Below are positions 1,164 through 34,074 of a stretch of DNA of 64,000 bases, piece after piece; position 1 is the first letter of the stretch, and every line of letters starts with the position of its first letter. Source of the stretch: Escherichia phage V18; sequence record NC_041937.1; one strand, given 5' to 3'. Position numbers and translations under genes: made by a program. The notes under the pieces are model-generated. The model saw only the letters and a list, made by a program, of their open reading frames with translations, made no database searches and was not told the DNA's origin.

Positions 1164-2963
1164 TCACCTCTGTCTGTCCAGCCACCAGTTCTGTAGTGAC
1201 ACTGTAGTGTAGCACAGTTCATTGGGTCCCCCTACAGTCCTGGCACTGGTACCACCACAAGCTATCGGTAGTGGTTCCCATTTGGCTTTCCGGTTGTTAT
1301 AAACACCCCATTCCAAACTGCCGTTACCGGATTCGTCCATCCCGCCATCCCAGATGACCATCTTGGCGGCTTTCTTAGATCCCCAGAAACCTCTTTCTGC
1401 TCCTGAACTGCGGATCCATTCTCCAAGTCCCCAGTTTGCCAGCTGACCGTTCAGATCACCAACCTGCATATATTTAGGACAATCTAAGACCCCATCCTCA
1501 CGGAAGCCTAAATATCTATGAGTTTCAGATCCTTTTGCGCCTTTGTGCAGGTGGATTGTCAACCAAGCCTTATTGTCGTTTCTTACCTCAGAGTAGATCC
1601 TATACCCATGCTCAAGGACACCGTCAGCGCTGTATTTGTCCCCGTTAACAATACCTGATGCTGACTTAACATCAGCAGAACTTTGAGACAGGTAAAGGTG
1701 CCCAAAGGTAGGGGAGTTTCTAGACCCGAGACCGATGTGTGCTCTAAAGGTATCATCGTTACGAGGTCTGACCATCGGCTGCCATGCAGTCCACTGATTT
1801 GTGTTGGCCTGGTAGGTTCTCAAATACCAAACATCTACGTTAGAGAATGGATAGTATTCCTGACGACAACCTGTACCGCCGTTAGCATTGTTCTGCCAAA
1901 CAATCAAGTGACCAGCACCAGAACCTGCAGGGTAACCATTTGCCTCAGTTGCATAGGCAGTCATCGGCTGGTAGTACACACCATCCTGATTACCAGTTAA
2001 GTTATTGATATTGAAATTTGGCTCAAGGGCTGCACGTTGCTTATAGAAAGCCCCCAAGTTAATGCGTGAACCTGCGGCATCCCTGGCACCTGTGCCGCCT
2101 TGCTCTATAGCAAGAGGTTGCCACGAAGCTGTTTGTTGGTTCCACATACCCCAACGGCCTGTTGCATCAAGCTGCAAGTACCCTGCTGTGTTTAAATCAT
2201 CTCCAGCACGGATAACTGTTCTTGTTGGGTTGTTTGCCTCTAGGCGTTTAAATTCATCACGAAGTGCTATTCTTTTTGTTGTTGCTACACCGTTGGTTAC
2301 TGCAATGGTATACATGGCTCCGGTGGTAGCGCCACGGAAAATACCATCAACAGTTGTAGTATCACGACGAGATACCACACCATTCAGAAATTTTTCACCA
2401 GCTGCTACAGAAGGGTAGTTGGTAGTTCTTCCCTCTTCAATAACTGCAGGGCCAACAAAGTTATCAAGGTGAATAACATCGCCTACAGTGTGCACTGTAC
2501 CAAAATCTACACGCTGTGCAAGGGCTTTAGCATCGTTAGCTGTCTGAACAGTAACATCCATTACATCCTGGACAGACTGCCCTTCGGCTGTCATAATCAT
2601 AGATGCGCCAATGGTAGATTCCAGCTCCTCCCTTAAGGACGGATCTGTATATACCATCCATGCAGCGTCAGTAATCCCACCATCGGAGTACGGTGAAGAT
2701 AGTGCAGGGACAGTGTGTGGAAATTCGCCTTTCCAACGCAGGTAGAGGTCTTCCTCTTCGAAGTAGGCAAAATCCATTGGGCCGTTTAACTTACCACCTT
2801 CCTTAAAGGAGATTACATGAGAAACAGTCCCATCCACATGGACAACATCGCCAATTTTTACACGACGAGTCAGGTCTGGTTGTTGAACAACCAGGTAATC
2901 ATCCTCTGTCACTGCGGTAGTGGCAGGAAGAGATTCAATTCTGACAACTTTAATATCAGCCAT
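1164..2963 (-). CDS. tail fibre protein
   Basis: 599 aa; N-terminus DDYLVVQQPDLTRRVKIGDVV shared with ORF 5598-6266; GGTGA(R) ... NLG fibre motifs (QGGTGARDAAGSRINLGA, ACGGTSAR). Confidence 0.7.
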   Translation of the reverse strand: MADIKVVRIESLPATTAVTEDDYLVVQQPDLTRRVKIGDVVHVDGTVSHVISFKEGGKLNGPMDFAYFEEEDLYLRWKGEFPHTVPALSSPYSDGGITDAAWMVYTDPSLREELESTIGASMIMTAEGQSVQDVMDVTVQTANDAKALAQRVDFGTVHTVGDVIHLDNFVGPAVIEEGRTTNYPSVAAGEKFLNGVVSRRDTTTVDGIFRGATTGAMYTIAVTNGVATTKRIALRDEFKRLEANNPTRTVIRAGDDLNTAGYLQLDATGRWGMWNQQTASWQPLAIEQGGTGARDAAGSRINLGAFYKQRAALEPNFNINNLTGNQDGVYYQPMTAYATEANGYPAGSGAGHLIVWQNNANGGTGCRQEYYPFSNVDVWYLRTYQANTNQWTAWQPMVRPRNDDTFRAHIGLGSRNSPTFGHLYLSQSSADVKSASGIVNGDKYSADGVLEHGYRIYSEVRNDNKAWLTIHLHKGAKGSETHRYLGFREDGVLDCPKYMQVGDLNGQLANWGLGEWIRSSGAERGFWGSKKAAKMVIWDGGMDESGNGSLEWGVYNNRKAKWEPLPIACGGTSARTVGGPNELCYTTVSLQNWWLDRQR

Positions 2964-2998
2964 TCTTTCTCCTGAAAGGGGGCAAACAGCCCCCTATG

Positions 2999-5596
2999 TT
3001 AAAGGTACAATCCACGGTATTGAGCATAAAGGCCTAGACCGCGAAGGATTTCGCCAGAGTGATAGCCAACCGGGTCAGAAACTGCCCAGCAGCCGTTTAA
3101 AATATTATCCCCATTAATGAAGTGGTGCTTTTGCAGTAGCTTCACACAGGCTTCCACAACAATATCTATTTGAGGTATTGTCTCTGAATACCCGCAAAGA
3201 CCTAGCCAGCAGCAACCTGCAAGCCATTCACCTACCACCCACATCCTGTCTCCTCTGTCCTGATAAGAATATCCCCCAGAGGTGTTAAAGTCTGTAGGCA
3301 GATTTCCTGAATGAGATGACTGGAATCTGTTGAGGAACCATGCCCATTTCTGGCAGAACAGGAATAGTCTTTCATCAACAGGTTCTTTATGTTTCTTGAG
3401 CTCATATATTGTGCGGCACGCAGCAACAAAAGATCTTGACTGGAGCTTAGAGTTATCTACCATCTCCCACCAACCAGTCAACCCTTCATTACCTCTTTGC
3501 CATACATAACGTGAGGCAACTGGACCCTCTGTCTTAAATGTATTATTATACCAGACTTGAGCGTCATACAGAAAGCCTATTGTATTTGACAATCTATGGC
3601 GATCTATGTTTTCTGCACCCATGCAGTAGACTGCTGGGTATTGCATGCCAGGGTAGGGCCAATTTGGCTTTTCCTCTAAGAGATAGTTTTCCTTATCTAT
3701 CATCTTTCCGGCAGGGAACACACCCGGTGTGTGCCTGTATGCACCTTGCTTGTAGTTTCTGACATAGCAATCTCCAACCTTAGCGGTTGATTCTGTCTTG
3801 CTTGCCATCCATACACTAAACCAGATTAGATAAGCATCCCTATCTGCAATATAGAATTGCGGCAGCGTGTTGACGCAATATAGATCAAACAAGCCATTAC
3901 CTATCTGCCTGTCGCTTAGGCTGAAATCTACAGAGGTGAGCCCCTTAGGATTAGCAAAGAAAGGTTTAATCTCTTCTTCGGTGTGGTGAGGTTGTGTCGG
4001 ATCTAGTTTGAAATCTCCTAGAGTAAGAGTTTCTGTTATCCATTGTCCATTAGTGGCATATAGATCAGCATACCATAACCACCTGTCTTTGTCAAGAAAT
4101 TTGACCCTTACCATCTCATCATCTGATCGATAAGTTACTGAGTTTAAAGAAACCTCTCTTCCAAAATTGAAAGTTACTTTACCTCTTGCTATATTACAAC
4201 GGGTGAAGTTGTCAGAGTGGTTGTAAATGTCGGTATCATACTGCATACTGACACTAGCGCCACCGCTCACGGCAATGTTTTCCTCTTTAGGTAAGAGATA
4301 CGGATTACCGTCTTTACCAACCACCTCTACAAAATCAGTAACCTTGGCAACTGTTTCTGTTACCTCTGCCCCTCCAAAAGGGACACCTATTCTGTACTGT
4401 TTTTTGTTATTGTTACCATCATTAAGGATGAAATGTGGTTGGAACAGAACCCCTTCTCCTCCGAAATTCATAACAATTTCAGCATCTCTGCCTATTTTGT
4501 ATGTAGTCCCTTTTTGGATTATTTCGCAAGGCTGGCGTGCGTTCATTCTAAAATTGATATATCCGTCACTATCCCTACTCATGACAGGTACTGTTCCTGC
4601 AACTAGACAAGTGCCATCTGTGAACGGGGCCTTAATCAACGTGGTCTTTCTGAACAGCTTGTCGTAGGCATTTATATCACTAAAATTAAGCAACTTATTG
4701 TAAGACTGCTTAAACGCGGTGTAATACTTTTCCTCACCTGTCAAGGTATAGAGTTGATAGCAAGCGTCACACCACATCTCTTCCCCGTCTAACTCTGTGG
4801 CTTGATTGTCTGCAACCACATTTATAGGATTTACAATTACAGGGGATCCAGCAGGTATCACCGATCCACCCTGCTCTTGTGGCAATCTCACACAGTAGGT
4901 CACCTTGTGGCTGCCTGTAACACCCTTATCCTGCAGTTGGATTGTGCCGAACTCTGCAGACGTATGACCACTATCGGCTATGCTACCGTTGGCCCAATAG
5001 CGGTTACCATCCCATGCTATATACCACTCAACCCACCAACTTAACCCGGATGTTGTCCAATCTGGGTTAGCATCTGTGCCACCGTAAACATCAGAGTCTA
5101 CAGTGTTTCTTCCTAATACACCGTTATATGCTTGAAATGCCTTGTCCAGGTATTCCCCCCATGTCGGAGATCCAGCTGGGATTTTTCCTCTACCATTGGT
5201 AAAAGATACCACCACATCTTTAAACCCACCATGTGATGGAACCCCATCTGTGGATAGAGGGTAGTGGGACAATCTTTGCATTTTACTTTCTACTGCATAT
5301 GCACCCAAAAGATGACTATTGTAAGCTTCCCAAGCATCTTTTGCCCTATCCAAGTAGAAATCGCTTTTCGATGCCCTGTATGCTTCAATGTACCCCAGAA
5401 TCAACACAGCTTGGGACTCATGCATTGCCCAATCATTATTTATCTTATTACCTGCCCACCCTGCAGCTATAAGACCATCAGGGTTTACTAGCTTATTTTG
5501 TGTGGGAGTGTTGGTAATACCTGTGTTGTTATCGAGGCACTTCCTGTGCCCCTCAATCATCTGAAATACGTTATCAATGTTGTGTTGAATACGCAT
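2999..5596 (-). CDS. putative tailspike / receptor-binding protein with possible polysaccharide-degrading domain
   Basis: 865 aa immediately downstream of a fibre-anchor ORF (stop and start 1 nt apart); N- and C-terminal regions look like alpha/alpha-barrel glycosidase folds; function unverified. Confidence 0.45.
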   Translation of the reverse strand: MRIQHNIDNVFQMIEGHRKCLDNNTGITNTPTQNKLVNPDGLIAAGWAGNKINNDWAMHESQAVLILGYIEAYRASKSDFYLDRAKDAWEAYNSHLLGAYAVESKMQRLSHYPLSTDGVPSHGGFKDVVVSFTNGRGKIPAGSPTWGEYLDKAFQAYNGVLGRNTVDSDVYGGTDANPDWTTSGLSWWVEWYIAWDGNRYWANGSIADSGHTSAEFGTIQLQDKGVTGSHKVTYCVRLPQEQGGSVIPAGSPVIVNPINVVADNQATELDGEEMWCDACYQLYTLTGEEKYYTAFKQSYNKLLNFSDINAYDKLFRKTTLIKAPFTDGTCLVAGTVPVMSRDSDGYINFRMNARQPCEIIQKGTTYKIGRDAEIVMNFGGEGVLFQPHFILNDGNNNKKQYRIGVPFGGAEVTETVAKVTDFVEVVGKDGNPYLLPKEENIAVSGGASVSMQYDTDIYNHSDNFTRCNIARGKVTFNFGREVSLNSVTYRSDDEMVRVKFLDKDRWLWYADLYATNGQWITETLTLGDFKLDPTQPHHTEEEIKPFFANPKGLTSVDFSLSDRQIGNGLFDLYCVNTLPQFYIADRDAYLIWFSVWMASKTESTAKVGDCYVRNYKQGAYRHTPGVFPAGKMIDKENYLLEEKPNWPYPGMQYPAVYCMGAENIDRHRLSNTIGFLYDAQVWYNNTFKTEGPVASRYVWQRGNEGLTGWWEMVDNSKLQSRSFVAACRTIYELKKHKEPVDERLFLFCQKWAWFLNRFQSSHSGNLPTDFNTSGGYSYQDRGDRMWVVGEWLAGCCWLGLCGYSETIPQIDIVVEACVKLLQKHHFINGDNILNGCWAVSDPVGYHSGEILRGLGLYAQYRGLYL

Positions 5597-16781: not shown

Positions 16782-17402
16782 TTAAAAACTGCGTTTGCGT
16801 CTTGGGTGGCGAGGAGGTTGATTATTTAGACCACTGATAGGTGTAATCCCCTGGACATCAAACGGTCCGTTGCTGTTTTCATTAAATTTAACCCGAATTC
16901 CTTCGTCTACACGAACACCACCAATGATAATCATTCTGCTGTAAGCATCCAGTTCAGAATCTACATAGTCAGGGTGTGCCAGCAGCCAATCAAGGAAATC
17001 TTTCCATTGGGCGTAGGAAGATCCACCACGAATCTCTATGGTCTCATCACCTATTTTTTCCAGACGGGAAGTTATACTTGCATTACCGCTGGACACTTCC
17101 TGCATCATCAGCCACCGCACAAGCTGCACAAGCACATTGTACTTAAGCAGAGGTAGCTTATCAGGGTCTGCTGGATAATTTAGTTTCAGCTTCTCCATGT
17201 CAAGGAATGTTTTAATTACCTCGTCAGGGAGGGTTTCCTCATCAACATTGCCAAGCAACAACCTCATAATATTAATAAGGGGTTGGTCTGGATCAGGTTC
17301 CGGAGGTACAGGATCTTCTTTTGGTGGTTCTTCTGGGGTATCAACTACACCATCATGGTTAGGCGGGGACGGGATAATCTCTTCATCTTCATACCATGCC
17401 AT
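16782..17402 (-). CDS. hypothetical structural protein
   Basis: ORF 16782-17459; start placed at ATG 17402 (MAWYEDEE) with GAGGT RBS; Pro/Glu-rich linker. Confidence 0.4.
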   Translation of the reverse strand: MAWYEDEEIIPSPPNHDGVVDTPEEPPKEDPVPPEPDPDQPLINIMRLLLGNVDEETLPDEVIKTFLDMEKLKLNYPADPDKLPLLKYNVLVQLVRWLMMQEVSSGNASITSRLEKIGDETIEIRGGSSYAQWKDFLDWLLAHPDYVDSELDAYSRMIIIGGVRVDEGIRVKFNENSNGPFDVQGITPISGLNNQPPRHPRRKRSF

Positions 17403-17415
17403 TTGAAAATACCTC

Positions 17416-17452
17416 GTAAAAATAAAGCCCCATTCCTGATTTGGAAGGGGCC
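17416..17452 (-). terminator. rho-independent terminator candidate
   Basis: GC stem GCCCC ... GGGGC with inner TTCC/GGAA stem, followed by T-rich run on minus strand. Confidence 0.4.
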
Positions 17453-17461
17453 TTAACAAAA

Positions 17462-17914
17462 TTATGCCAGTGCAGCCTCAAAATCTTTCATCATATTTTG
17501 GAAAGTTTTTGCCTTACTTAAGGTAACACCGTACTCTTTGGCGAAGGTTTGGAGTGCATCTTTTGAACCACTTTTGTCATCTTCGTTGTTAAGAGCTGCT
17601 GCCTGCTGTAGTATGGCATCAACATCACTGCGAGAAGATCTTGATTCTTGTGCCTGTTCAGGATCCTGCTCAGTGCCTTCCTCAGGTACAGTCGGGCCTT
17701 GAGATTCTTCACCACCACCAGGTTCAGTAGGACCTACAGGCGGCTCCGGCTCTGGTTCAGGCGGTGGAGCTACCGTAGAGGTCAGTCCAAGATTCACAAC
17801 CTGAGAACGTTTCTTAGGCCACTCAATGGTGAAAGTTTGGGTATCTTCTTCATAAACAATGCTGCATTGCTCATCGTTTATGGTCACTTTTTTAGGCATC
17901 CCTACAGGTCCCAT
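17462..17914 (-). CDS. hypothetical structural protein with Pro/Glu-rich linker
   Basis: 150 aa; PPPEPEPEPPVGPTEPGGGEE linker; followed by hairpin plus T-run. Confidence 0.4.
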   Translation of the reverse strand: MGPVGMPKKVTINDEQCSIVYEEDTQTFTIEWPKKRSQVVNLGLTSTVAPPPEPEPEPPVGPTEPGGGEESQGPTVPEEGTEQDPEQAQESRSSRSDVDAILQQAAALNNEDDKSGSKDALQTFAKEYGVTLSKAKTFQNMMKDFEAALA

Positions 17915-18306
17915 AGATGGCCCTCTGCCACGGAAACTTGGAAAGCAGCGTCTACCTCTTTAAACACTGACGGGGTGAGTGTAATATTGACATCCCCGCT
18001 TTGCAGTGTTAAAGTGCTTTCATCAAGGTTCTCTGTGAAGAACAGAAGAATAACACCCATACGGATAGTTGAAATACCAGTATCAATTGGCAGGCCTGTA
18101 TGTTTTGCAATCTTCTCGAAGAAGTCTACAATCGTTCTGCATGGATAGTGAACACTGCCAATAACGAACTCTGTTGGTGGCAGCAAGGCTGATAAACCGA
18201 CATTGATTTCTGGATTATATTGTGCTAAAAATTGATAAAAACTTAACTGATTGTTGAAAACTCTTAATAGAGGATCATACTCAACTGGGTAGACGGTTCG
18301 CTTCAC
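17902..18306 (-). CDS. hypothetical head protein
   Basis: 134 aa ORF downstream of capsid gene terminator. Confidence 0.4.
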   Translation of the reverse strand: MKRTVYPVEYDPLLRVFNNQLSFYQFLAQYNPEINVGLSALLPPTEFVIGSVHYPCRTIVDFFEKIAKHTGLPIDTGISTIRMGVILLFFTENLDESTLTLQSGDVNITLTPSVFKEVDAAFQVSVAEGHLWDL

Positions 18307-18330
18307 GGGACACTCCTGTTAAACCCTAAT

Positions 18331-18363
18331 AAATAAAAAGGGGAGGGGGAGAACCCCCTCCCC
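18331..18363 (-). terminator. rho-independent terminator after major capsid gene
   Basis: Perfect 10 bp stem GGGGAGGGGG-AGAA-CCCCCTCCCC followed by TTTTTATTT on minus strand. Confidence 0.6.
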
Positions 18364-18387
18364 ATATGGGATGAATCACCTCAGTGA

Positions 18388-19212
18388 TTATTCACCACCT
18401 TTCAGAGTTGCTTTAACAACCAGCTCTGGACGGGTGTTAACTGCCAGCATGGAAGTTTCAGATTCAATCTTCTCTTCACGCAGGTATGCAGAGTGTTTAT
18501 ACCACATGTACAGTTCCTGTGCTGGAGTGTTTGCTTCGTTAACATCGTCTGCCGGAGCAAAGTGCAGCTGGAACATCTGATCAATACCCATCGGCAGAAT
18601 GCGAGCTTCTTTCTTAGGAATATTGCCAGAGATATCTTCGATAAAGGTGATACCTTTATGCTCAAACACACGGTATACGCTGTCTTGACCGCCAGCACCC
18701 AGACGGCGACGCAGAGGTTCCTGAGCAGAGCCGTAATAGGTGTATGCCAGTTCTACCAGAGGGTCATACTGACAGGTTGTGTCACCAGGTGCATAGGATT
18801 TACCCAGAATAGCCTGGAACAGCGCTTTCTCACGCAGTGCTTCATGAGAAACACGGATACGGCGAACAACGCGGGTTACTACGTCCTGAACAGTTTTCGG
18901 AGCATCAGGTGTGAAGTAACGACGGAAGTTCTGAACATCTGCTGCGGTGATGCCTTTGTCCAGAGGGAAGAACGGGATGTTCAGGTTTTTAACCTGAGCA
19001 CGTTCACTACCAACGTAGTTACGCTCACCACCACGACGGCGTGCCGGAATGTCGGTTACAACTTCATCAACACGCTCAATCTGAGCAATTGTTGAGGTGC
19101 CGAGACGGGTTTCGAACAGATCCATACCAGTAATCAGGCGGAATTGACGCGGAACAAGGTCCAGAGTAGCACCTAAATCAACAATGCCAAATTCATCTTT
19201 ACGAGTAATCAT
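18388..19212 (-). CDS. putative major capsid protein
   Basis: 274 aa; strongly biased GC-rich codon usage unlike neighbours (high expression); downstream of portal and head ORFs; perfect 10 bp GC hairpin terminator follows. Confidence 0.55.
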   Translation of the reverse strand: MITRKDEFGIVDLGATLDLVPRQFRLITGMDLFETRLGTSTIAQIERVDEVVTDIPARRRGGERNYVGSERAQVKNLNIPFFPLDKGITAADVQNFRRYFTPDAPKTVQDVVTRVVRRIRVSHEALREKALFQAILGKSYAPGDTTCQYDPLVELAYTYYGSAQEPLRRRLGAGGQDSVYRVFEHKGITFIEDISGNIPKKEARILPMGIDQMFQLHFAPADDVNEANTPAQELYMWYKHSAYLREEKIESETSMLAVNTRPELVVKATLKGGE

Positions 19213-19296
19213 TTATTTCTCCAAAGTAAAATTGTAGCCAGCATCGCTAGAATCAACTTTGCCGAGCACGATATCAGAATATTGAGCGGTAATCAT
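19213..19296 (-). CDS. small upstream ORF (27 aa) preceding capsid gene
   Basis: MITAQYSDIVLGKVDSSDAGYNFTLEK; shares GAAATAAATGATTAC initiation region with the capsid gene; may be leader peptide or non-functional. Confidence 0.25.
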   Translation of the reverse strand: MITAQYSDIVLGKVDSSDAGYNFTLEK

Positions 19297-19380
19297 TTAT
19301 TTCCCCCGTTAAACTCTTATGCTTCAGCAGATCCAGATACTCTTTAGTTTTGGTTGCGTCCCTTGATCAGGTTCCCTTCT

Positions 19381-19728
19381 TTATCGAAGAGATCCCAGCC
19401 TACCAATACAAGACTCTGCGTCAGCTTGCGCCCATTCCCAATCAGGATGCTCTTTAGCCCAAGCCTCCTCTTCAATCTCAAAACCAAGCATGTGTGCAAG
19501 TGCTTTAGCATCATCATACCACATATCGAAGAAACGACGCAAGTATTCTTCAAAACTAAGCTCCACAGTAACTTGGCGAAGTGCCTTAACAATATCGTCT
19601 GTTAACTGCTCAGGCTTAAGATCACTCTTCATCAAAAGAGATACAGGTCTGTTGTTAGCGCTATAGCCTTGCGCCTTATGGCACAGGGCAATCCCCTTCT
19701 CTTTAATAGTAATCGTTTTTTCAGACAT
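19381..19728 (-). CDS. hypothetical head protein
   Basis: 115 aa acidic ORF between portal and capsid genes. Confidence 0.4.
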   Translation of the reverse strand: MSEKTITIKEKGIALCHKAQGYSANNRPVSLLMKSDLKPEQLTDDIVKALRQVTVELSFEEYLRRFFDMWYDDAKALAHMLGFEIEEEAWAKEHPDWEWAQADAESCIGRLGSLR

Positions 19729-20148
19729 TATTCATTGCCCTCTTCTACAACACTGATCCCGAAGTTTACGTTGGTAATTTCACCAGTTTCTTCATCAACA
19801 TTACCTGTTGCCTGAATGCTTAGGCCACCAACAATGCCAGCCTTCTTAGCTTCCCATAATTCAGGATTATTGTATTTAACTTTAGCAACCCAAGAGCCAG
19901 CCTTGATGACCTGCTCAGTGCCAATTACTACAACATCAAACTCTTCTTGAATCCACGTCTTTTCAATAGTGAAAGCATCTGTAGAGGTCAAGTGAAAAAG
20001 GTTTTCAGAAACTAGGCCTGCGGCGTATGCTGCGTCCCAATTATCTTTAGCCTTTTTGATGGTGTCTTTACTCATCCACTCACCGTGAGCATCTTTAGTG
20101 TCAGGTTCGTAGATGATTTCGTAGGAAATCATTTCTTCCTGTGGCATC
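19728..20148 (-). CDS. hypothetical head protein (scaffold or protease-like position)
   Basis: ORF 19728-20303 overlaps portal 3' end; start placed at ATG 20148 (MPQEEMISYE) with GAGGA RBS. Confidence 0.4.
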
Positions 20149-20214
20149 TTATTCCTCATGTGGATTATTTTATCACGCCAAAGGAGGTTTTGCAACCCCC
20201 TGTGTTGATAATTT

Positions 20215-27855: not shown

Positions 27856-28410
27856 TTACTCCCCGCTGTCAATAGCAAGACTCATTGCAATACGGTATGC
27901 CTCTTCTAATGGTAAGAGTCTCCCCCACACATCCCAACCGACATCAAACTGCCTGCCAAACAACTGCTGTGTGGTTCCGTGAGCATGACCGAACAGTTGG
28001 ACCGATCCGTGAGGCTTTCTGTTCCACTTTGCAAACTGGTAATGGCTCATACAGATCAAATTCTTGTTGTGGCGAAGCTCGTAATAATCTACAACCTCAT
28101 GACCGAACTCTTTCATAATTCTGACAGTCGTCCTTGTGTCATGGTTACCACGAACAAGAATAATATGTCCGTTCAACATATTTAGAACATCTGGGAGCAA
28201 TTTGTTAATATTCTTATCATTAGTGCACGCAATATCTCCTAAGTGAAACACAGTGTCTGCAGGTGACACAACAGAGTTCCACTTGGTGATGATCCCCGCA
28301 TTCATACTGTCAAGATTGTGATCATACTGAGATCTGTGTTTTTGACATGAGTCAAACTCCATGACCCGCTGGTGGAGAAAGTGTGTGTCGCTTGTTACAA
28401 AGTATTTCAT
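27856..28410 (-). CDS. calcineurin-like metallophosphoesterase (putative polynucleotide 3'/2',3'-phosphatase)
   Basis: Start at ATG 28410 (MKYFVTSDTHFLHQ) with GAGGA RBS; motifs DTHF, HLGDIA, RGNHD, GHAH. Confidence 0.65.
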   Translation of the reverse strand: MKYFVTSDTHFLHQRVMEFDSCQKHRSQYDHNLDSMNAGIITKWNSVVSPADTVFHLGDIACTNDKNINKLLPDVLNMLNGHIILVRGNHDTRTTVRIMKEFGHEVVDYYELRHNKNLICMSHYQFAKWNRKPHGSVQLFGHAHGTTQQLFGRQFDVGWDVWGRLLPLEEAYRIAMSLAIDSGE

Positions 28411-28417
28411 ACATTCC

Positions 28418-28828
28418 TCATTTAAGTTTAATGCAGTTTTTAAGCTGGCGTTCCATACGATCCACAACCCTGTCTGGAACATCATGAATGCTTTTACTAC
28501 CATGGCGGTTTTCAACCACGATTACGGTATAACTATACCCATGACTGATCGCCATGTCAATATATTCTTGCACATATTTTTCTTTTGTAAATGTATTACT
28601 TACCACGATACGGTCGTATCCCATACGCATCATATCTTCTACGTTATCTTTGCACCATTTTGCTGCAAGTGTTACTTTACTTGCATCCCAGTTGTAATTT
28701 CCATCATCGTCGTACCAGAACATGTCGTTCTCAAAATGTGGATACAGACCTTCTAAAGATAGCGCACTTGCCAGTGTTGATTTGCCAGACCCTGGTAGAC
28801 CACGCACGATATATAGCATTTTAGACAT
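28418..28828 (-). CDS. P-loop polynucleotide kinase-like protein
   Basis: Start at ATG 28828 (MSKMLYIVRGLPGSGKSTLA) with GGAGG RBS; resembles T4 Pnk kinase domain; stop overlaps phosphatase RBS. Confidence 0.6.
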   Translation of the reverse strand: MSKMLYIVRGLPGSGKSTLASALSLEGLYPHFENDMFWYDDDGNYNWDASKVTLAAKWCKDNVEDMMRMGYDRIVVSNTFTKEKYVQEYIDMAISHGYSYTVIVVENRHGSKSIHDVPDRVVDRMERQLKNCIKLK

Positions 28829-28856
28829 AGTAATCCTCCGTTTTAATTTCAACGAT

Positions 28857-28885
28857 AGTATACCTAACTGTTTTGTTAATTTCAA
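28857..28885 (-). promoter_or_regulatory. sigma70-like promoter for kinase/phosphatase operon
   Basis: Minus strand TTGAAA-N17-TATACT in divergent intergenic region. Confidence 0.4.
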
Positions 28886-28928: not shown

Positions 28929-29606
28929 ATGACAAATGAGGAACGTATGATGAAGTATTTTAATGCAGACGACCTAGTTGACAAAGGTCTTGTAACCAGC
29001 AGATATTACACAGATCTTGGGTTAAAGATCTATAAATATGCCAGAAAAGTATTTTACAACAATTTATGGCATTTGTCCCCTCGTTTACTGGAGTGCCGAG
29101 GCATTGTTGTCGGTAATGAAGGAAATGTTGTGGCATGGCCCTTCACAAAAGTGTTTAACTTGGGAGAAAACTCCACCAACCTGTCTGACAATAAGCTTGT
29201 GACGGCGGTAGAGAAAAAGAACGGATTCCTTGGTGTGGTATCATCTCATAAAGGTGAACTATTGTTCTCAACAACCGGATCTCTTGATTCTCCATATTGT
29301 AACCTCGCAAAGGAAACCATCCAGGAGCAATGTGGTAATTTAGATCTTATCAAGAAGGTTATGGGCAATGAAAACATGACATTCATGTTTGAAATTTGTC
29401 ACCCTTCAGATCCGCATATTGTTCAGGAAGATCATGGCGCATATTTGATAGGTTGCAGGTATAATGATTCTGGAATAATGCTACCAGAGGCAGCTTTAGA
29501 TGGGATTGCCAAATACCTTGGTGCAAAACGTCCTCACACTGTGCGTGAAATTCCGTTCAGCTATGCAAAAGAATTGGCTGCAGAAACAAGAGGTGAAGGT
29601 ATATGA
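28929..29606 (+). CDS. putative RNA/DNA ligase-like nucleotidyltransferase
   Basis: 225 aa; candidate motif I lysine in VEKKNGFLGV (KxNG); divergent from kinase/phosphatase operon; assignment tentative. Confidence 0.45.
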   Translation: MTNEERMMKYFNADDLVDKGLVTSRYYTDLGLKIYKYARKVFYNNLWHLSPRLLECRGIVVGNEGNVVAWPFTKVFNLGENSTNLSDNKLVTAVEKKNGFLGVVSSHKGELLFSTTGSLDSPYCNLAKETIQEQCGNLDLIKKVMGNENMTFMFEICHPSDPHIVQEDHGAYLIGCRYNDSGIMLPEAALDGIAKYLGAKRPHTVREIPFSYAKELAAETRGEGI

Positions 29607-29863
29607 TTCGTAAGCCTTACTATCCTTATGATCTGCAGCTGAAGATTAAGTCTCCATACTATCTGGCACGGAAGGCCGTAATGAGGGGTAAAGCTTGGAA
29701 GATTTGGGATGATGATATCTTTAAACGTGTTGACGAAGAGTTTTACGGCATGGTAAACTTCATTCGTAGCAATTACACAGAAGATGTGTGGAACTGCCTC
29801 CTGGAGCAGGAACGCCGTGAGATACTTGACTGCTATTTCCACAACGAGGACTATATGCAATGA
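29603..29863 (+). CDS. hypothetical protein
   Basis: 86 aa ORF translationally coupled to ligase-like gene. Confidence 0.4.
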   Translation: MIRKPYYPYDLQLKIKSPYYLARKAVMRGKAWKIWDDDIFKRVDEEFYGMVNFIRSNYTEDVWNCLLEQERREILDCYFHNEDYMQ

Positions 29864-30042
29864 AGAAGTGGAAAGTTCTTTTTAATCACTCCAGAGAAAC
29901 GTCAAATTATGGGCTCCCAGACGCTATTTGGCTAAAGAATTCCTCCGAGTTTATGGATTTTATTAACGATAATAGAAAGCTCTACAGACGCGTTTCTGAG
30001 TGGCATATGGACAACGACCTTGGAGAGGTGTTCGAAGGGTAA
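29860..30042 (+). CDS. hypothetical small protein
   Basis: 60 aa ORF, start overlaps upstream stop. Confidence 0.25.
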   Translation: MKKWKVLFNHSRETSNYGLPDAIWLKNSSEFMDFINDNRKLYRRVSEWHMDNDLGEVFEG

Positions 30043-30211
30043 GACTGTTTTATTGCGCTTGGAAGAGCTATTTGTATTTGGTAAGCCTCCTGTAGTTGAC
30101 AACGTGAAGATTTTCGTGCATACTTCTAACCCATCAGCGGCTCGTAAATTCATGCTTGCGGCTGACTCGTTTAAAAAGTTTGGAATAGAGATTAAACAAA
30201 ACATCTACTGA
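30020..30211 (+). CDS. hypothetical small protein
   Basis: 63 aa ORF overlapping previous in another frame; may be a frame variant of the same gene. Confidence 0.25.
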   Translation: MERCSKGKTVLLRLEELFVFGKPPVVDNVKIFVHTSNPSAARKFMLAADSFKKFGIEIKQNIY

Positions 30212-30219
30212 GGACACTT

Positions 30220-30921
30220 ATGCGACGACTGATTGTTATCTCCGGTGCTGGTTTGAGTGCTGAATCTGGTATTCCCACTTTCCGATCTGGTAGCACTGCA
30301 ATGTGGGAGAATTTCAGCATCGATGAGGTGTGCAACATCCACACCTTTGCCAAGAACTACTATAAGGTGCATGACTTTTACAATGCACGTCGTGTAGCTT
30401 TAGGCAGTGTTGAGCCTAACCTTGCACATCTTCGGATCGCTGAGTGGTATTCCCGCTGGTCTGGTCGTGTGATCAACCTTACCACCAATGTAGATGATTT
30501 GCTGGAGCGTGCTGGTGTAAAACATGAAGATATTTTACATGTCCACGGGTATTTGCCAGAAATAGTCTATGAGGACGATGAAGGAAGTGACGTCATTAAG
30601 GACATTGGATACTCTGAGGTAGACGCAGGAAAGTATACCTGGGTTAAGCCTAATGTGGTGTTCTTCGGAGAAGTAGCTCCGAAGTATACAGACATGTATG
30701 ACCTGTTGACTTCTCTTACGAGCAATGATATGGTTATCCTTGTAGGGTGCTCCAACACAGTTATCAATTTTAACTGGGAGCATCTAGAGGAGAATGGCAT
30801 TTCACGTAGTGATATTTACCAGTATGAGGATCGCGGCATCCCAGTTTGGTTTAACGGTGCGGTTGATGCCTTCTCTGATAAAACATTCATTGAGACTGTA
30901 GAAAACTTTATGGAACTTTAA
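30220..30921 (+). CDS. Sir2-family (sirtuin-like) NAD-dependent protein
   Basis: GAGLSAESGIPTFRS Rossmann motif, NVDDL and HVHG motifs; no CxxC zinc-binding module; GAGGA RBS. Confidence 0.7.
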   Translation: MRRLIVISGAGLSAESGIPTFRSGSTAMWENFSIDEVCNIHTFAKNYYKVHDFYNARRVALGSVEPNLAHLRIAEWYSRWSGRVINLTTNVDDLLERAGVKHEDILHVHGYLPEIVYEDDEGSDVIKDIGYSEVDAGKYTWVKPNVVFFGEVAPKYTDMYDLLTSLTSNDMVILVGCSNTVINFNWEHLEENGISRSDIYQYEDRGIPVWFNGAVDAFSDKTFIETVENFMEL

Positions 30922-30934
30922 AAGGAGAACTTTA

Positions 30935-31648
30935 ATGCTGAATACTAAATTAATTGACAACCTGGAAAAACTATCCCAACCTGAAAACTACCTTTGGTCT
31001 GCCAACTGGGTGGAAAACTGGAACCGTGTGGCAGCTAAAGTGAAAAAATCATACACACCATTCGAATTACAGCTTAGCTTCATTGAGGAAGAGTTCAATG
31101 AAGTTTTGGAAGAGCTGGAGAAAGGTGATGGTGGAGATCACCTGCTAAAAGAGGCCTGCGATCTTCACGTTGTCACAAGTTATGCCGCTTATCTTGTTAA
31201 TGACAATCACGAAAAGTGGTCAAGCCTGTTTGATAATCCACAGGGTCTTAAGTTCAAGATCGGTGAGTTCTATGATACCCTGATCGCTGCGAAAAACACA
31301 CCTAAGCAAAGAGCGTCAGCTTACCGCTTAGCGGAGTTGTCAACAGCTTTGCTGTTCCAGCTTCGCGGCGATGTGTGCGGGATGATGCGTAAGGTTCTCA
31401 AATCGAATGACAGTAAGTTTGCACGGGTCAACCATCTACGGTATTCACACGGTGCCAGTGCAGATATGCCTGCTGAACAACTCATCGAGTTGGAGATTAA
31501 AGATCTTGAGCGACGCTTTGATGGTAGATATGAAGGTTTTGTTGCTAAGGAAGAGTTCTACAACGGTAATAAAGTTATCATATTCCTTGACAGTAAAGGT
31601 AAGATCATGAAGCCTTCGAGCTTCAAGGATGTAACAGAGTATATTTAA
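30935..31648 (+). CDS. putative MazG-like nucleotide pyrophosphohydrolase domain protein
   Basis: FIEEEFNEVLEELEKGD ... HLLKEACDL resembles the EExxE/D metal-binding helices of MazG-type NTP-PPases; tentative. Confidence 0.4.
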   Translation: MLNTKLIDNLEKLSQPENYLWSANWVENWNRVAAKVKKSYTPFELQLSFIEEEFNEVLEELEKGDGGDHLLKEACDLHVVTSYAAYLVNDNHEKWSSLFDNPQGLKFKIGEFYDTLIAAKNTPKQRASAYRLAELSTALLFQLRGDVCGMMRKVLKSNDSKFARVNHLRYSHGASADMPAEQLIELEIKDLERRFDGRYEGFVAKEEFYNGNKVIIFLDSKGKIMKPSSFKDVTEYI

Positions 31649-31654
31649 CAACAT

Positions 31655-31680
31655 AGCCGGGATTACCCGGCTTTACTTGT
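31655..31680 (+). terminator. terminator candidate
   Basis: AGCCGGG-ATTA-CCCGGCT hairpin then T-rich tail. Confidence 0.4.
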
Positions 31681-31681
31681 T

Positions 31682-32020
31682 GTGGAAAGTATGCAAGTGA
31701 GGAAGATAGTTATGTACAAGCACTCTAGAGATCTTGAAAACGATGCTGTGTTTGGGGATCAGATGAAAGAGTTGGTTAAACTCATAGGCAGGATAGAGGA
31801 TAAGTTTGACACTAAGATCTACATCGACAGCAAAGTATTCAACCACAAAATATGGACAAATCTGTGTGTTGGACTACATGGAGATAAAGATGTGGTAAAT
31901 TTAGTTGTAATTAAGTTCATAGTGTGGCAGAATAAAACTATAAATTATTACGATCCACACCTTCTTGTTTACCCGATAAAAGACCTATTAGATAAGGAGG
32001 ACTGCAGTGCCGTTATTTAA
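31682..32020 (+). CDS. hypothetical protein
   Basis: 112 aa ORF after terminator-like hairpin. Confidence 0.4.
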   Translation: MESMQVRKIVMYKHSRDLENDAVFGDQMKELVKLIGRIEDKFDTKIYIDSKVFNHKIWTNLCVGLHGDKDVVNLVVIKFIVWQNKTINYYDPHLLVYPIKDLLDKEDCSAVI

Positions 32021-32276
32021 TCTTGCTAAACCTGTAGAAGCACACCAGTTTGACGGAAGCTCTTCATCAGTATCTGATCTGCAACGGTGGATTGATACAG
32101 GTGTGTTTACATCGTCACCTGTTCGTACCAGAGATCTTCGTCGCATGTGTGAGCTTGTCGAGCCGTTTGGTAACCTGGTCTTGTACCAGGGAGATTGGTT
32201 AGTTGACTTTATGGGAGACTGGTTGGTAATGAGTAAAGAAGAGATGTTTAACATTTTTAAGGAAGAGGCCGAGTAA
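32007..32276 (+). CDS. hypothetical protein
   Basis: 89 aa ORF coupled to ligase gene (stop overlaps ATG). Confidence 0.4.
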   Translation: MPLFNLAKPVEAHQFDGSSSSVSDLQRWIDTGVFTSSPVRTRDLRRMCELVEPFGNLVLYQGDWLVDFMGDWLVMSKEEMFNIFKEEAE

Positions 32277-33598
32277 TGCATCAGATCAAAACAACACTGT
32301 ACGCACTGAACAAAGATGGCAGCTACCAACAGTGGAAAGTATTCACGGATGGTGATAAGGTTATCGTAGAGTTTGGCAAGCTTGATGGTAAATTGCAATA
32401 CAAAGAGACGATCTGCACACCTAAGAACGTTGGTCGCGCCAATGAAACTACAGCTGAGCAACAGGCCGAGCTGGAAGCGATCAGTAAGTGGGAAAAACAG
32501 GTCCGACTCGGGTACGTGGAGAGTATGGAAGATTGTGAGCAAGGTGTTGATCTTTTACCAATGTTAGTGCATGACTACCTGAAGCGTGGCAAGGCACTTA
32601 AATTACCTTGCTGGATCTTGCGTAAGTTAGATGGCCTTCGTCTACTTGTTGTTTTCCAGAATGGTGAGCCTAAATTTATTTCCCGTGGTAATAAATCCTA
32701 CCCTATTCAAGGAAAGCTTTTGGAGCAACTTCGCTCTTTCCACCTAACCACCGGGATTAAACAGCTCGACGGAGAGCTCTATATTCATGGTCTGCCTCTG
32801 CAGAAAATAGTGTCTCTTGCTAAACGGTGGCGCACACAGGAAGAAATTCAGGCCGAGATCGATAAAGACTACGAGGCAGATAAAAAACGCCGTCAGGCTG
32901 CGATTAAGGCAGGTTTAGCAACATACAAAAACTTCAACAAGATGGATATTCCTGTTGATGTTGATCCTGTTCGTGATGATTTGCGTTACGGAGGGTACTG
33001 CAGCTACGACCTAGAGTATCATATTTTCGATATCCCTAGCGATAAGGTGTGGTGGGATCCTGAAACAGAGTCTGGTCGCTGTAAGGATCTTATGGAGGCA
33101 AACGGTGCTATTACTTCTTTGATGCTTGATCATATTAAGGTTGTTGATGCAGAGCTTGCATATACGGTTGATCGGTGCGAAGAGTCTGTTGGTATATTTA
33201 TGTCTGAAGGATATGAAGGTACCATTATGCGTAACTTCTGTGGTAAATATGAGTATGGTCAGCGAACATCTGAAGCATTGAAATGGAAAAAGTTCAACGA
33301 CGCAGAGGTGAAAGTTATTGACGTTGAGAAAGATAAGAATGATGAAGGTGTTCTTATCTGTGTTGACAAGGAAGGTGTTGTTGTTAAAATGAAGATGAAA
33401 GGCACGCACGAGGAGCGTAGCTATGACAGGATGCAGGAAATGATCGGCAAGTTTGTCACCTTCAAATATCAAGCAAGGACAGAAGACAACAACTACCAAT
33501 TCCCGGAGTGGTGGGATGCTGTATGCGTCAGAAAATCCGCAGAATATGCAAAACATGATGATTCGTTGGAAGAGTGGTTTAATCGGAGGTTTAAATGA
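32276..33598 (+). CDS. ATP-dependent DNA ligase
   Basis: 440 aa; motif I KLDGLR, motif IV EGYEGTIMR, motif V KWKKF. Confidence 0.75.
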   Translation: MHQIKTTLYALNKDGSYQQWKVFTDGDKVIVEFGKLDGKLQYKETICTPKNVGRANETTAEQQAELEAISKWEKQVRLGYVESMEDCEQGVDLLPMLVHDYLKRGKALKLPCWILRKLDGLRLLVVFQNGEPKFISRGNKSYPIQGKLLEQLRSFHLTTGIKQLDGELYIHGLPLQKIVSLAKRWRTQEEIQAEIDKDYEADKKRRQAAIKAGLATYKNFNKMDIPVDVDPVRDDLRYGGYCSYDLEYHIFDIPSDKVWWDPETESGRCKDLMEANGAITSLMLDHIKVVDAELAYTVDRCEESVGIFMSEGYEGTIMRNFCGKYEYGQRTSEALKWKKFNDAEVKVIDVEKDKNDEGVLICVDKEGVVVKMKMKGTHEERSYDRMQEMIGKFVTFKYQARTEDNNYQFPEWWDAVCVRKSAEYAKHDDSLEEWFNRRFK

Positions 33599-34074
33599 AG
33601 CTAGATAAAAATGTACAATTGAGAGCATTTTTTTCGATGATTTCACACTCAGAAGGTACTGACAGGTATGGTGGCGAAGATGCTTCGTACCACATCCTTG
33701 TTGGTGGAAAATACATAGAGGATCTCAGCAGGCATCCCGGTATTTATGTCAAATTAAGACCGGGCCTTACCTCTTCAGCATTTGGCAGATACCAAATTCT
33801 GGAGAAATACGCTAAGCATTACATGAAGCAGCTTGGCTTAAGAGATTTTGGTCCGGCAAGTCAAGATGCCATAGCAAAACAGTTGATCCGCGAATGTAAA
33901 GCCCTTGATGACATTTATGAAGGAAGGATCCGTTCAGCTATCTATAAATGCCGTAGCCGTTGGGCAAGTTTCCCACCACCACCGGGGGCTGGTAAACTGT
34001 ATGATCAGCGTGTAGAAAACATAGAGAAGATGCTGGACGTCTTCCGAAAAGCCGGAGGCACAGTACTGGATTAA
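33595..34074 (+). CDS. endolysin (lambda R-like lytic transglycosylase)
   Basis: Aligns by eye with lambda R: SHSEGTD, ILVGG, SSAFGRYQIL, KQLGLRDFGPASQDAIA, WASFPPPPGAG, KAGGTV. Confidence 0.75.
   Translation: MKLDKNVQLRAFFSMISHSEGTDRYGGEDASYHILVGGKYIEDLSRHPGIYVKLRPGLTSSAFGRYQILEKYAKHYMKQLGLRDFGPASQDAIAKQLIRECKALDDIYEGRIRSAIYKCRSRWASFPPPPGAGKLYDQRVENIEKMLDVFRKAGGTVLD

Follow-up and report, generated by a model that had tools for sequence, protein, structure and literature searches.

A sirtuin-centered, NAD+-dependent system for RNA (tRNA) repair has been proposed by Iyer, Burroughs, Anantharaman, and Aravind (2022, Viruses 14:1977; PMC9503650). The type 2 neighborhood of this system (section 3.7.3 of that paper) brings together a sirtuin, a T4-like tRNA ligase, cREC, a kinase for nucleotides, a pyrophosphatase of the MazG superfamily, and a calcineurin-like phosphoesterase, and was described for "Escherichia phage V5" and Proteus phage Mydo. 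The assignment of the pyrophosphatase of this neighborhood to the MazG superfamily is therefore already published. Further from the locus, MazG and HisE are the only families that can be detected by sequence from the phage family studied here, and the dimeric dUTPases, such as the staphylococcal phage Duts (5mil, 5myd, and 5myi) and the Leishmania major enzyme (2yay), appear from a predicted model to be its best structural match. A literature search combining rV5 with MazG or dUTPase returned nothing specific. We analyzed a 64,000-nucleotide stretch of DNA (the window) from an rV5-like E. coli myovirus (Vequintavirus). It carries a gene set identical to the published type 2 neighborhood, for which the prototype phage (rV5) is also the same, and all six genes are present between positions 27856 and 31648 (Table 1). 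At a probability of roughly 0.55, we consider the product of the last of these genes to be a divalent-metal-dependent (d)NTP pyrophosphohydrolase of the all-alpha NTP-PPase superfamily that most likely serves the dNTP pool in a dUTPase-like manner.

Table 1. Coordinates of the pyrophosphohydrolase gene, its motifs, and the surrounding features in the window
Feature	Positions	Strand	Remarks
Calcineurin-like phosphoesterase and P-loop (polynucleotide/nucleotide) kinase-like genes	27856..28885	-	
T4-type RNA ligase and cREC cyclic-phosphate-processing gene	28929..30211	+	
Sir2-family gene	30220..30921	+	233 aa; Pfam SIR2, 2.3e-27
Shine-Dalgarno sequence AAGGAG	30922..30927	+	Strong; 7 nt from the ATG; read from sequence
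Predicted phage all-alpha NTP pyrophosphohydrolase (ORF)	30935..31648	+	237 aa; ATG start
Parts of the 237-aa protein			Helical, putatively catalytic domain, ~residues 16-160; C-terminal extension, ~residues 165-237
Motif 1, V26-x-x-W29-N30-x-x-A33	31010..31033	+	Helix 20-37
Motif 2, Q46-x-x-(L/F)-(V/I)-x-E52-E53-x-x-E56	31070..31102	+	Helix 43-63; metal-binding signature, first half
Motif 3, (D72/E73)-x-x-C-D76-x-F-V-V-x-S-Y83	31148..31183	+	Helix 68-87; signature second half (ExxD equivalent)
Motif 4, V-L-x-S-N158-x-S-K161-F-(P/A)	31394..31423	+	End of helix 147-159
C-terminal element, G197-R-Y199, beta-hairpin, loop G222-K223-I-M-K226-P227	31523..31615	+	Hairpin strands 203-209 and 212-218
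Intrinsic-terminator-like hairpin AGCCGGG-ATTA-CCCGGCT, then TTACTTGTTG	31655..31682	+	
ATP-dependent DNA ligase	32276..33598	+	Most constant neighbor of the pyrophosphohydrolase gene within the rV5 supergroup

The open reading frame represents a genuine phage gene that is intact and well conserved. A first, sequence-only reading of the window had placed it directly downstream of a sirtuin-like gene; the frame has exactly the boundaries given there, and 13 nt separate the Sir2-family stop codon from the ATG. More than 100 Vequintavirus genomes carry orthologs at 96 to 99% identity. Comparisons with two relatives gave pN/pS values of 0.056 and 0.13, which indicates strong purifying selection on the frame. 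Among rV5-like phages, the gene is a standard and highly conserved component, and it already carries the label nucleotide pyrophosphohydrolase in PHROGs. Just 3' of its stop codon lies a GC-rich stem-loop of 7 bp (positions 31655 to 31672) with a T-rich tail, which would terminate a transcription unit composed of rnl, cREC, sir2, and the pyrophosphohydrolase gene.

The translated frame matches PHROG 671, "nucleotide pyrophosphohydrolase" (E = 5.3e-22), of which it is a direct member together with phi92 gene 089 and proteins of FV3, slur16, Mydo, and others, with the name of this group itself being a prediction. Searched alone, the 237-aa protein missed every Pfam threshold; it scored 13.4 bits against PRA-PH (PF01503; E = 0.11, cut-off 21.3) and had no match to MazG (PF03819) at an E value of ≤1. 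A single-sequence search of PDB sequences returned noise only (CsuC, E ~0.6), and a search of NCBIfam gave no meaningful match. Among 83 homologs, with matches counted at an E value of ≤0.01, 55 matched PRA-PH (best, 3.9e-7) and 19 matched MazG, and some cleared the PRA-PH cut-off, for example, a Vibrio phage protein at 26.6 bits. A profile of 17 sequences found no match in the PDB; MazG and HisE were reached by the profile of the 83-sequence family only, with E. coli MazG (3crc) at an E value of 0.003, HisE (1yvw) at 0.007, and AF_0060 also among the matches. The earlier suggestion of a MazG-like enzyme, for which a profile search had been named as a check, consequently stands at the level of the superfamily that unites MazG, HisE, and the dimeric dUTPases. 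It does not extend to a canonical MazG, since the protein itself falls below all Pfam thresholds. Rather, the protein is a member of a distinct phage-specific two-domain family of approximately 160 clusters, for which a profile search found no domain fusions. Two proteins recovered in the exhaustive homolog search, P0104 (993 aa) and P0140 (465 aa), were discarded as repeat-protein false positives.

Conservation across the 83 homologs, whose identity is only 21 to 35%, centers on a small set of residues. E53, E56, D76, N158, K161, K223, and K226 are invariant in the alignment, E52 is nearly so, and position 72 or 73 is acidic in all sequences. The acidic pattern is not due to chance, because E53, E56, and D76 remain invariant and E52 almost invariant at such low identity. 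The metal-site carboxylates are arranged as E52/E53/E56 (EExxE) and E73/D76 ((E/D)xxD) on successive helices, and in the comparison of the family profile with the PDB these EExxE...D helices align with the same motif in 3crc, 1yvw, and AF_0060. Two peptides from this region, IEEEFNEVLEELEKGD (residues 50 to 65) and KEACDL (residues 72 to 77), had been singled out in the sequence-only reading as resembling the metal-binding helices of MazG and other all-alpha NTP-PPases; both are present, and the resemblance is confirmed by their invariant acidic residues and by the alignment with 3crc and 1yvw. Outside the metal site, N30 of motif 1 is kept in 82 of the 83 homologs, and the residues of this motif are candidates for base or sugar recognition. 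Motif 4 may correspond to the N-x-x-(K/R) motif with which MazG-like enzymes and dimeric dUTPases bind phosphate, and the C-terminal element may form a triphosphate-binding lid.

The helix pair with EExxE and (E/D)xxD metal ligands is shared with MazG and HisE, but a MazG or HisE domain is only half the size of the 237-aa protein. The phage protein differs from these enzymes in three additional helices (residues 92 to 142) that separate core helix 3 from core helix 4 and in a conserved hairpin near its C terminus, which carries an invariant GK-x-x-KP loop. A HisE function was rejected because a protein of 237 aa with two structural parts contrasts with a small single-domain enzyme (approximately 90 to 115 aa) and because no his genes were seen in any neighborhood examined.

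Structure prediction, the second check named in the sequence-only reading, placed the protein closest to the dimeric dUTPases. An AlphaFold (AF2) model built on a deep alignment reached a pLDDT of 94.7 and a pTM of 0.90, replacing an earlier model on a shallow alignment (pLDDT of 62). The top Foldseek matches of this model in the PDB were the dimeric dUTPases 5mil, 6h4b, 5myd, 5myi, and 2yay, with 5mil aligning at a TM score of 0.65 and an rmsd of 3.7 Å over 151 columns. As a group, these matches had target-normalized TM scores of 0.53 to 0.68, rmsd values of 3.7 to 5 Å, approximately 150 aligned columns, and probabilities up to 1.00, with weak E values of 0.14 or higher. Matches in a viral fold library included proteins named PRA-PH, DR2231-like NTP-PPase, and dUTPase, in addition to a 471-aa mimivirus "thymidine kinase." Both the dimeric dUTPases and the phage protein are enlarged all-alpha folds with helices inserted around a four-helix core, and the conserved W29, N30, and Q46 could be residues for specific recognition of dUTP/dUDP (or dCTP). 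The phage protein is also like the dimeric dUTPases and the T4 gp56 dCTPase-dUTPase in being phage encoded and in its probable role in the dNTP pool. Nothing in the PDB matches corresponds to the C-terminal beta-hairpin domain.

This likeness did not carry over to sequence. None of the 83 family members matched Pfam dUTPase_2 (PF08761) at an E value of ≤0.01, whereas the positive controls phiNM1 Dut and T4 gp56 were found at 9e-19 and 2e-5, respectively. In hhalign comparisons, the family profile aligned with the phiNM1 dimeric Dut and with T4 gp56 at probabilities of 1.0% and 1.7%, and the sole aligned stretch in T4 gp56 was the homologous metal-binding helix, QKDCIDDEFRELL versus QLSFIEEEFNEVL. 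The resemblance to dUTPases thus appears to be one of fold, as seen in the predicted model. Because the hhalign results were not significant, we do not place the protein among the dimeric dUTPases.

The gene neighborhoods of the family extend well beyond the published repair neighborhood. Among the loci compared, direct adjacency of the gene to Sir2 occurs in the rV5 genus only. In PVP-SE1 and Hena1, DNA ligase and two to three further genes lie between the pyrophosphohydrolase gene and Sir2, and phages related to phi92 and phAPEC8 carry the gene without Sir2 nearby. Of 14 other loci, only 2 had Sir2 within approximately 5 to 6 kb, and both belong to Vequintavirinae. Synteny with the block of RNA ligase, cREC, and DNA ligase is kept throughout the rV5 supergroup; this constant location also fits a role in end repair, which counts against a role in the dNTP pool. 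At eight gene-bearing loci outside the supergroup, neither Sir2 nor RNA ligase, cREC, or DNA ligase was present, and the gene stands beside DNA polymerase B or nucleotide metabolism genes. For example, metagenomic loci have the order TAGT, epimerase, sugar dehydrogenase, pyrophosphohydrolase gene, DNA polymerase B, UvsX, and DnaB (slightly different in one locus, L013), and Pseudomonas phage pf16 has the order QueF-like, QueC, GATase, pyrophosphohydrolase gene, DNA polymerase B, and dNMP kinase. In a Vibrio phage, an NT5C deoxynucleotidase gene overlaps the pyrophosphohydrolase gene. Neighbors in distant members include DNA hypermodification genes, and a similar dUTPase/MazG-like gene, with 7-deazaguanine genes on one side and the polymerase on the other, has been noted in phage phiST (PMC10516641). 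The evidence from these distant clades may not carry over to rV5-like phages if specificity has diverged.

These contexts bear directly on whether the enzyme is an accessory of the RNA repair system, acting with RNA ligase, cREC, the kinase, the phosphoesterase, and Sir2, for instance, by cleaving a pyrophosphate bond in by-products derived from ADP-ribose or at RNA ends that are nucleotide capped or adenylylated. The published neighborhood in V5 and Mydo, the presence of every component in the window, the position of the gene as the last of the rnl-cREC-sir2 unit before the terminator-like hairpin, and the synteny across the rV5 supergroup all favor such a role. However, the phages that share this linkage are all related, and the synteny may therefore be mere inheritance. 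The phi92- and phAPEC8-like phages have retained the gene without Sir2, and membership in the repair system is doubtful because the family also occurs in modules of DNA polymerase and dNTP genes from which both Sir2 and RNA ligase are missing. The state of the genes in the window also argues against this role. The Sir2 protein has 233 aa compared with 253 aa in relatives, owing to an in-frame deletion of 60 nt (20 aa) at position 30779, the RNA ligase frame is split at approximately 29598 by a 1-nt deletion, and the cREC frame is split at approximately 30048 to 30058, whereas the pyrophosphohydrolase gene is intact, with sequencing error as a possible source of these differences. Taken together, we regard a function in RNA repair as unlikely.

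The sequence-only reading had further linked the Sir2 neighbor to a joint manipulation of host nucleotide or alarmone pools. This part found no support; the adjacency is a local peculiarity of rV5-like phages, and we see no sign of joint action. In this scenario, the enzyme would hydrolyze (p)ppGpp or similar host signaling nucleotides, possibly with Sir2, and the infected cell would thereby stay in a state resembling growth. Activity on ppGpp in vitro has been reported for E. coli MazG, a role in (p)ppGpp metabolism has long been hypothesized for cyanophage MazG, and the gene does sit in an early/middle gene block. The conserved partners of the family, however, are replication and dNTP enzymes rather than stringent response genes, and linkage to Sir2 is not conserved. 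Rihtman et al. (2019) state in their title, cited in PMC10516641, that a phage MazG tested earlier could not hydrolyze magic-spot nucleotides; this likewise speaks against the scenario, which we consider very improbable.

From the conservation and motifs of the intact frame, its predicted fold, and its gene contexts, we infer the catalysis, substrate, and residue roles of the proposed dNTP pool pyrophosphohydrolase. The enzyme is predicted to convert (d)NTP and H2O to (d)NMP and PPi. In this scheme, the water-activating Mg2+ ions would be bound by four or five carboxylates located on a pair of antiparallel helices (E52/E53/E56 and E73/D76), the triphosphate would be clamped by N158/K161 and the C-terminal hairpin loop (R198/Y199 and K223/K226), and the nucleoside would be read by N30, W29, and Q46 on the first core helices. 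The enzyme most likely acts on the deoxynucleotide supply for phage DNA replication. A close rV5-like relative (OR062943.1) encodes NrdAB, NrdDG, glutaredoxin, ThyX, and a dNMP kinase, and its annotation contains no dUTPase or dCMP/dCTP deaminase; a tblastn search of this genome with approximate sequences of two trimeric dUTPases as queries gave no match. In rV5-like phages, a dUTPase-like or house-cleaning activity would supply dUMP to the phage ThyX and exclude uracil or aberrant dNTPs from DNA, and in distant relatives with hypermodified DNA, a canonical dNTP may be excluded. The host has its own Dut, and a phage dUTPase is thus not strictly needed, which counts against a dUTPase activity. 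A noncatalytic role in signaling only, as for staphylococcal Duts, was rejected because every predicted catalytic residue is invariant.

A related question is whether the nucleotides removed from the pool originate from host immunity. The enzyme would then destroy aberrant nucleotides that immune systems make or accumulate, such as dUTP from dCTP deaminases and the ddhNTPs with which viperins terminate chains, or immune signals derived from nucleotides. Indirectly in favor are its house-cleaning fold and motifs and the wide distribution of the gene among large lytic phages, and a PADLOC search found no match to known defense proteins, so the gene is not itself a known defense component. We saw no anti-defense locus context, and the mechanism overlaps that of the dNTP pool enzyme, differing in the origin of the substrate only; sanitation of the pool as a dedicated counter-defense is, in our judgment, improbable. 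A broader and rather speculative proposal is that the family constitutes a dNTP gatekeeper of variable specificity beside the replication genes of large lytic phages. Such a gatekeeper would be the missing dUTPase of rV5-like phages, where it might also act in counter-defense by removing toxic nucleotides (dUTP from dCTP deaminase systems and viperin ddhNTPs). Where phage DNA is glycosylated or contains 7-deazaguanine, the gatekeeper would exclude the canonical dNTP so that the modified base alone enters DNA, and the invariant GK-x-x-KP hairpin would represent a new kind of triphosphate lid for the all-alpha NTP-PPase fold.

If the enzyme is a dUTPase or dNTP gatekeeper, it would fill a gap in the nucleotide metabolism map of phages that are widely used in therapy and biocontrol, and the all-alpha NTP-PPase superfamily would gain a new structural variant with a C-terminal hairpin lid. 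It would also correct a widespread mis-annotation as "Sir2-like." Many database records currently label the gene either "hypothetical" or, mistakenly, with this name of its neighbor.

The window comes from an rV5-like Escherichia coli myovirus (Vequintavirus); over 30000-32300 it shares 96-98% identity with more than 100 GenBank phages, e.g., nom, rV5_ev147, FV3, and slur16. The open reading frame (ORF) under study, referred to as the pyrophosphohydrolase gene, lies directly downstream of the sirtuin-like gene as the sequence-only reading had described, starting 13 nt past the Sir2-family stop codon and containing the peptides quoted there. A ribosome-binding site, a 3' hairpin, and low pN/pS values (0.056 and 0.13 against two relatives) mark it as a real, expressed-looking gene under purifying selection. 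Its orthologs are 96-99% identical in more than 100 sequenced phages. In several records (MN850646 nom_76, MW748998, and UniProt A0A7H0XDZ2), these orthologs are labelled "putative Sir2-like protein" although the protein lacks a SIR2 domain, and the label is probably a misannotation carried over from the neighboring gene.

Features at and around the pyrophosphohydrolase gene in the window
Feature	Coordinates	Strand	Remarks
RNA ligase, split ORFs	28929..29606 and 29603..29863		Single CDS of 915-936 nt in relatives
cREC (cyclic-phosphate processing receiver domain, PF20274), split gene	29860..30042 and 30020..30211		One 351-nt CDS in relatives
Sir2-family gene	30220..30921		Pfam SIR2 2.3e-27; PHROG 2162 4.5e-96
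Ribosome-binding site AAGGAG			7 nt 5' of pyrophosphohydrolase ATG
Pyrophosphohydrolase ORF	30935-31648	+	237 aa
GC-rich hairpin with T-rich tail (terminator-like)	31655-31672		Directly 3' of pyrophosphohydrolase gene

The window protein alone reached 13.4 bits against Pfam PRA-PH, below the 21.3 cutoff, and searches of NCBIfam and PADLOC and a single-sequence search of PDB returned no match. In PHROGs it belongs securely to phrog_671, "nucleotide pyrophosphohydrolase" (E=5.3e-22). A word-indexed search for homologs recovered only 16 clusters, at ~95% and ~54% identity, and an exhaustive profile search recovered 164 representative clusters, nearly all of 210-250 aa with end-to-end matches; two long matches were discarded as repeat-protein artefacts. 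Across a family alignment of 83 members (21-35% identity to the query), E53, E56, D76, N158, K161, K223, and K226 are invariant; N30, Q46, E52, V79, Y199, and P227 are nearly so. Six motifs are conserved: VxxWNxxA, QxxLVxEExxE, (D/E)xxCDxFVVxSY, VLxSNxSKFP, GRYxGV, and FxDxxGKIMKPxTF. PRA-PH is matched by 55/83 members and MazG by 19/83, and none of the 83 matches the dimeric-dUTPase family PF08761. Searching PDB with the family profile hit E. coli MazG (3crc, E=0.003), HisE (1yvw, E=0.007), and MazG-like AF_0060, in every case through an alignment over the EExxE...D helix pair. These matches identify the acidic helix pattern, which had been likened to MazG, as the signature by which the all-alpha NTP pyrophosphohydrolase superfamily binds metal. 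Profile searching thus bore out the likeness through the family profile and PHROG 671 but not through the single protein in Pfam. The clade ~54% identical to the window protein (clusters P0002-P0016, from metagenome and Logan assemblies, with contigs up to 142 kb) is absent from 50,697 GenBank phage records, the next-best match being ~35% identical, and may represent an unsampled rV5-like lineage.

AlphaFold gave a poor model from a shallow alignment (pLDDT 62) and a model with pLDDT 94.7 and pTM 0.90 from the 83-sequence alignment. The latter has 10 helices: core helices 20-37, 43-63, 68-87, and 147-159 bear motifs 1-4, and helices at 92-142 form an insertion between core helices 3 and 4. After the core, two more helices precede a beta-hairpin (203-209/212-218) leading to an invariant GK-x-x-KP loop. 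This conserved hairpin and lysine loop are unseen in solved relatives, and the hairpin element has no match among PDB structures. The closest solved structures by Foldseek are dimeric dUTPases, first the staphylococcal phage Dut 5mil (TM 0.65, rmsd 3.7 Å, 151 columns) and then 6h4b, 5myd, 5myi, and Leishmania major 2yay, with probabilities up to 1.00 but E-values of only 0.14 or higher. In a viral structure library, the whole fold occurs in uncharacterized proteins of Pseudoalteromonas and Pseudomonas phages, in proteins named PRA-PH, DR2231-like NTP-PPase, and dUTPase, and in a 471-aa mimivirus "thymidine kinase." The dUTPase link fails at the sequence level (hhalign probability 1.0% for phiNM1 Dut, 1.7% for T4 gp56); these two proteins, as positive controls, both match PF08761. 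With T4 gp56, hhalign aligned a single stretch, the metal helix homologous in the two proteins (QKDCIDDEFRELL versus QLSFIEEEFNEVL). Dimeric dUTPases are therefore nearest by shape in the model, whereas PRA-PH and MazG are nearest by sequence, and the protein forms a separate branch of the superfamily. We hold the predicted enzyme class with high confidence.

The rV5-type gene order runs phosphoesterase (-), P-loop kinase (-), RNA ligase, cREC, Sir2, pyrophosphohydrolase gene, terminator-like hairpin, two small genes, and DNA ligase. This neighborhood, with "a MazG superfamily pyrophosphatase" among its members, has appeared in print as a proposed sirtuin-centered NAD+-dependent RNA-repair system with "Escherichia phage V5" as the prototype (Iyer, Burroughs, Anantharaman, and Aravind, Viruses 2022, PMC9503650, section 3.7.3). 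The MazG assignment is therefore prior literature and, given the PHROGs name as well, the gene is known. Synteny and likely cotranscription within the rV5 supergroup make an accessory role in RNA repair conceivable, but contexts with neither Sir2 nor RNA ligase weaken that proposal, and we consider it unlikely. In PVP-SE1 and Erwinia Hena1, Sir2 is near but nonadjacent (Sir2, DNA ligase, two to three other genes, pyrophosphohydrolase), and phAPEC8-like and phi92-like phages have RNA ligase, kinase, DNA ligase, and pyrophosphohydrolase with no Sir2 nearby. Sir2 is likewise not found nearby in T4-like metagenomic contigs (TAGT glycosyltransferase, epimerase, sugar dehydrogenase, pyrophosphohydrolase, DNA polymerase B, UvsX, and DnaB, with a slightly different order in L013), in Pseudomonas phage pf16 (QueF-like, QueC, amidotransferase, pyrophosphohydrolase, DNA polymerase B, and dNMP kinase), or in Vibrio phage 249E41-1, where the gene overlaps an NT5C deoxynucleotidase gene. 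A tblastn survey found Sir2 in only 2/14 loci, and the eight loci outside the rV5 supergroup yielded neither Sir2 nor RNA ligase, cREC, or DNA ligase. The Sir2 linkage is not kept outside the rV5 genus, which undercuts the earlier suggestion of joint action with Sir2. Nothing supported the accompanying idea of alarmone hydrolysis, and Rihtman et al. 2019, cited in PMC10516641, state in their title that cyanophage MazG cannot hydrolyse magic-spot nucleotides; we regard an alarmone-pool role as highly improbable.

Metagenomic contigs L011-L016 and L020 have T4-like replication modules (DNA polymerase B, UvsX, and DnaB) behind one to two TET/JBP-associated glycosyltransferases, an NAD-dependent sugar epimerase/dehydratase, and a UDP-glucose/GDP-mannose dehydrogenase, and the phages concerned may carry unusual glycosylated bases in their DNA. 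In pf16 (KU873925), "hypothetical" genes at 2614-4967 are QueF-like, QueC, and glutamine amidotransferase genes, a 7-deazaguanine DNA-modification cluster immediately 5' of the genes for the pyrophosphohydrolase homolog and DNA polymerase B.

The broader gene context argues for a deoxynucleotide role over a Sir2-coupled one: the gene recurs beside genes for DNA polymerase B, dNMP kinase, a deoxynucleotidase, and DNA modification, a placement suggesting a function in the dNTP pool, to which we assign a probability of roughly 0.55. In phage phiST, Cui et al. 2023 (PMC10516641) noted a comparable dUTPase/MazG-like gene flanked by the 7-deazaguanine genes on one side and the polymerase on the other. 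The conserved carboxylates, N-x-x-K motif, and lysine-rich C-terminal loop fit an enzyme that would hydrolyze (d)NTPs to (d)NMPs and PPi in a Mg2+-dependent manner. A fully annotated close relative (OR062943.1) has genes for ribonucleotide reductases of classes I and III, glutaredoxin, ThyX, and dNMP kinase, and its annotation lists neither a dUTPase nor a dCMP/dCTP deaminase; E. coli and human Dut, used as approximate tblastn queries, matched nothing in it or in the window. Given this inventory and the dNTP-gene contexts, we favor a dUTPase-like or house-cleaning dNTP pyrophosphatase, which would supply dUMP to ThyX and bar unwanted nucleotides from phage DNA. Within that role, dUTP as the specific substrate is tentative, and specificity may differ in clades with hypermodified DNA. 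That the enzyme sanitizes defense-made nucleotides as a counter-defense is speculative and improbable. In OR062943.1, nrdD (anaerobic ribonucleotide reductase) is annotated in three pieces at 17239-20168, interrupted by an HNH homing endonuclease, and a counterpart should lie inside the window.

Sir2, RNA ligase, and cREC are altered in the window, possibly through sequencing error, while the pyrophosphohydrolase gene is intact. The T4-type RNA ligase has a 1-nt deletion at 29590-29606 compared to relatives (GAAGGGTAT to GAAGGTAT); either genuine pseudogenization or a homopolymer sequencing error could explain the split. In cREC, the split stems from local divergence at 30048-30058 that includes a net +1 indel. 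An in-frame 60-nt deletion at 30779 removes 20 aa (LFPACNKGTKLLIVNKYDSQ) from Sir2; these are kept in both aligned relatives, nom and 241Ecol014PP, and two-piece matches to 25/25 listed relatives are consistent with the deletion. We take the lost segment to resemble a Rossmann-fold strand and the following Asn, and NAD binding by Sir2 may therefore be impaired. Further downstream (32276-34074), the window also differs structurally from its relatives, with a 440-aa DNA ligase ORF directly adjoining the endolysin ORF at 33595; relatives have an annotated 427-aa DNA ligase, a ~125-nt intergenic gap, and then a 165-aa endolysin. About 20 mostly unannotated "Campylobacter phage" records (MG065653, MG065655, MG065639, and others; host C. 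jejuni) share 97-98% identity with E. coli rV5-like phages in this region, and their host assignment looks doubtful.
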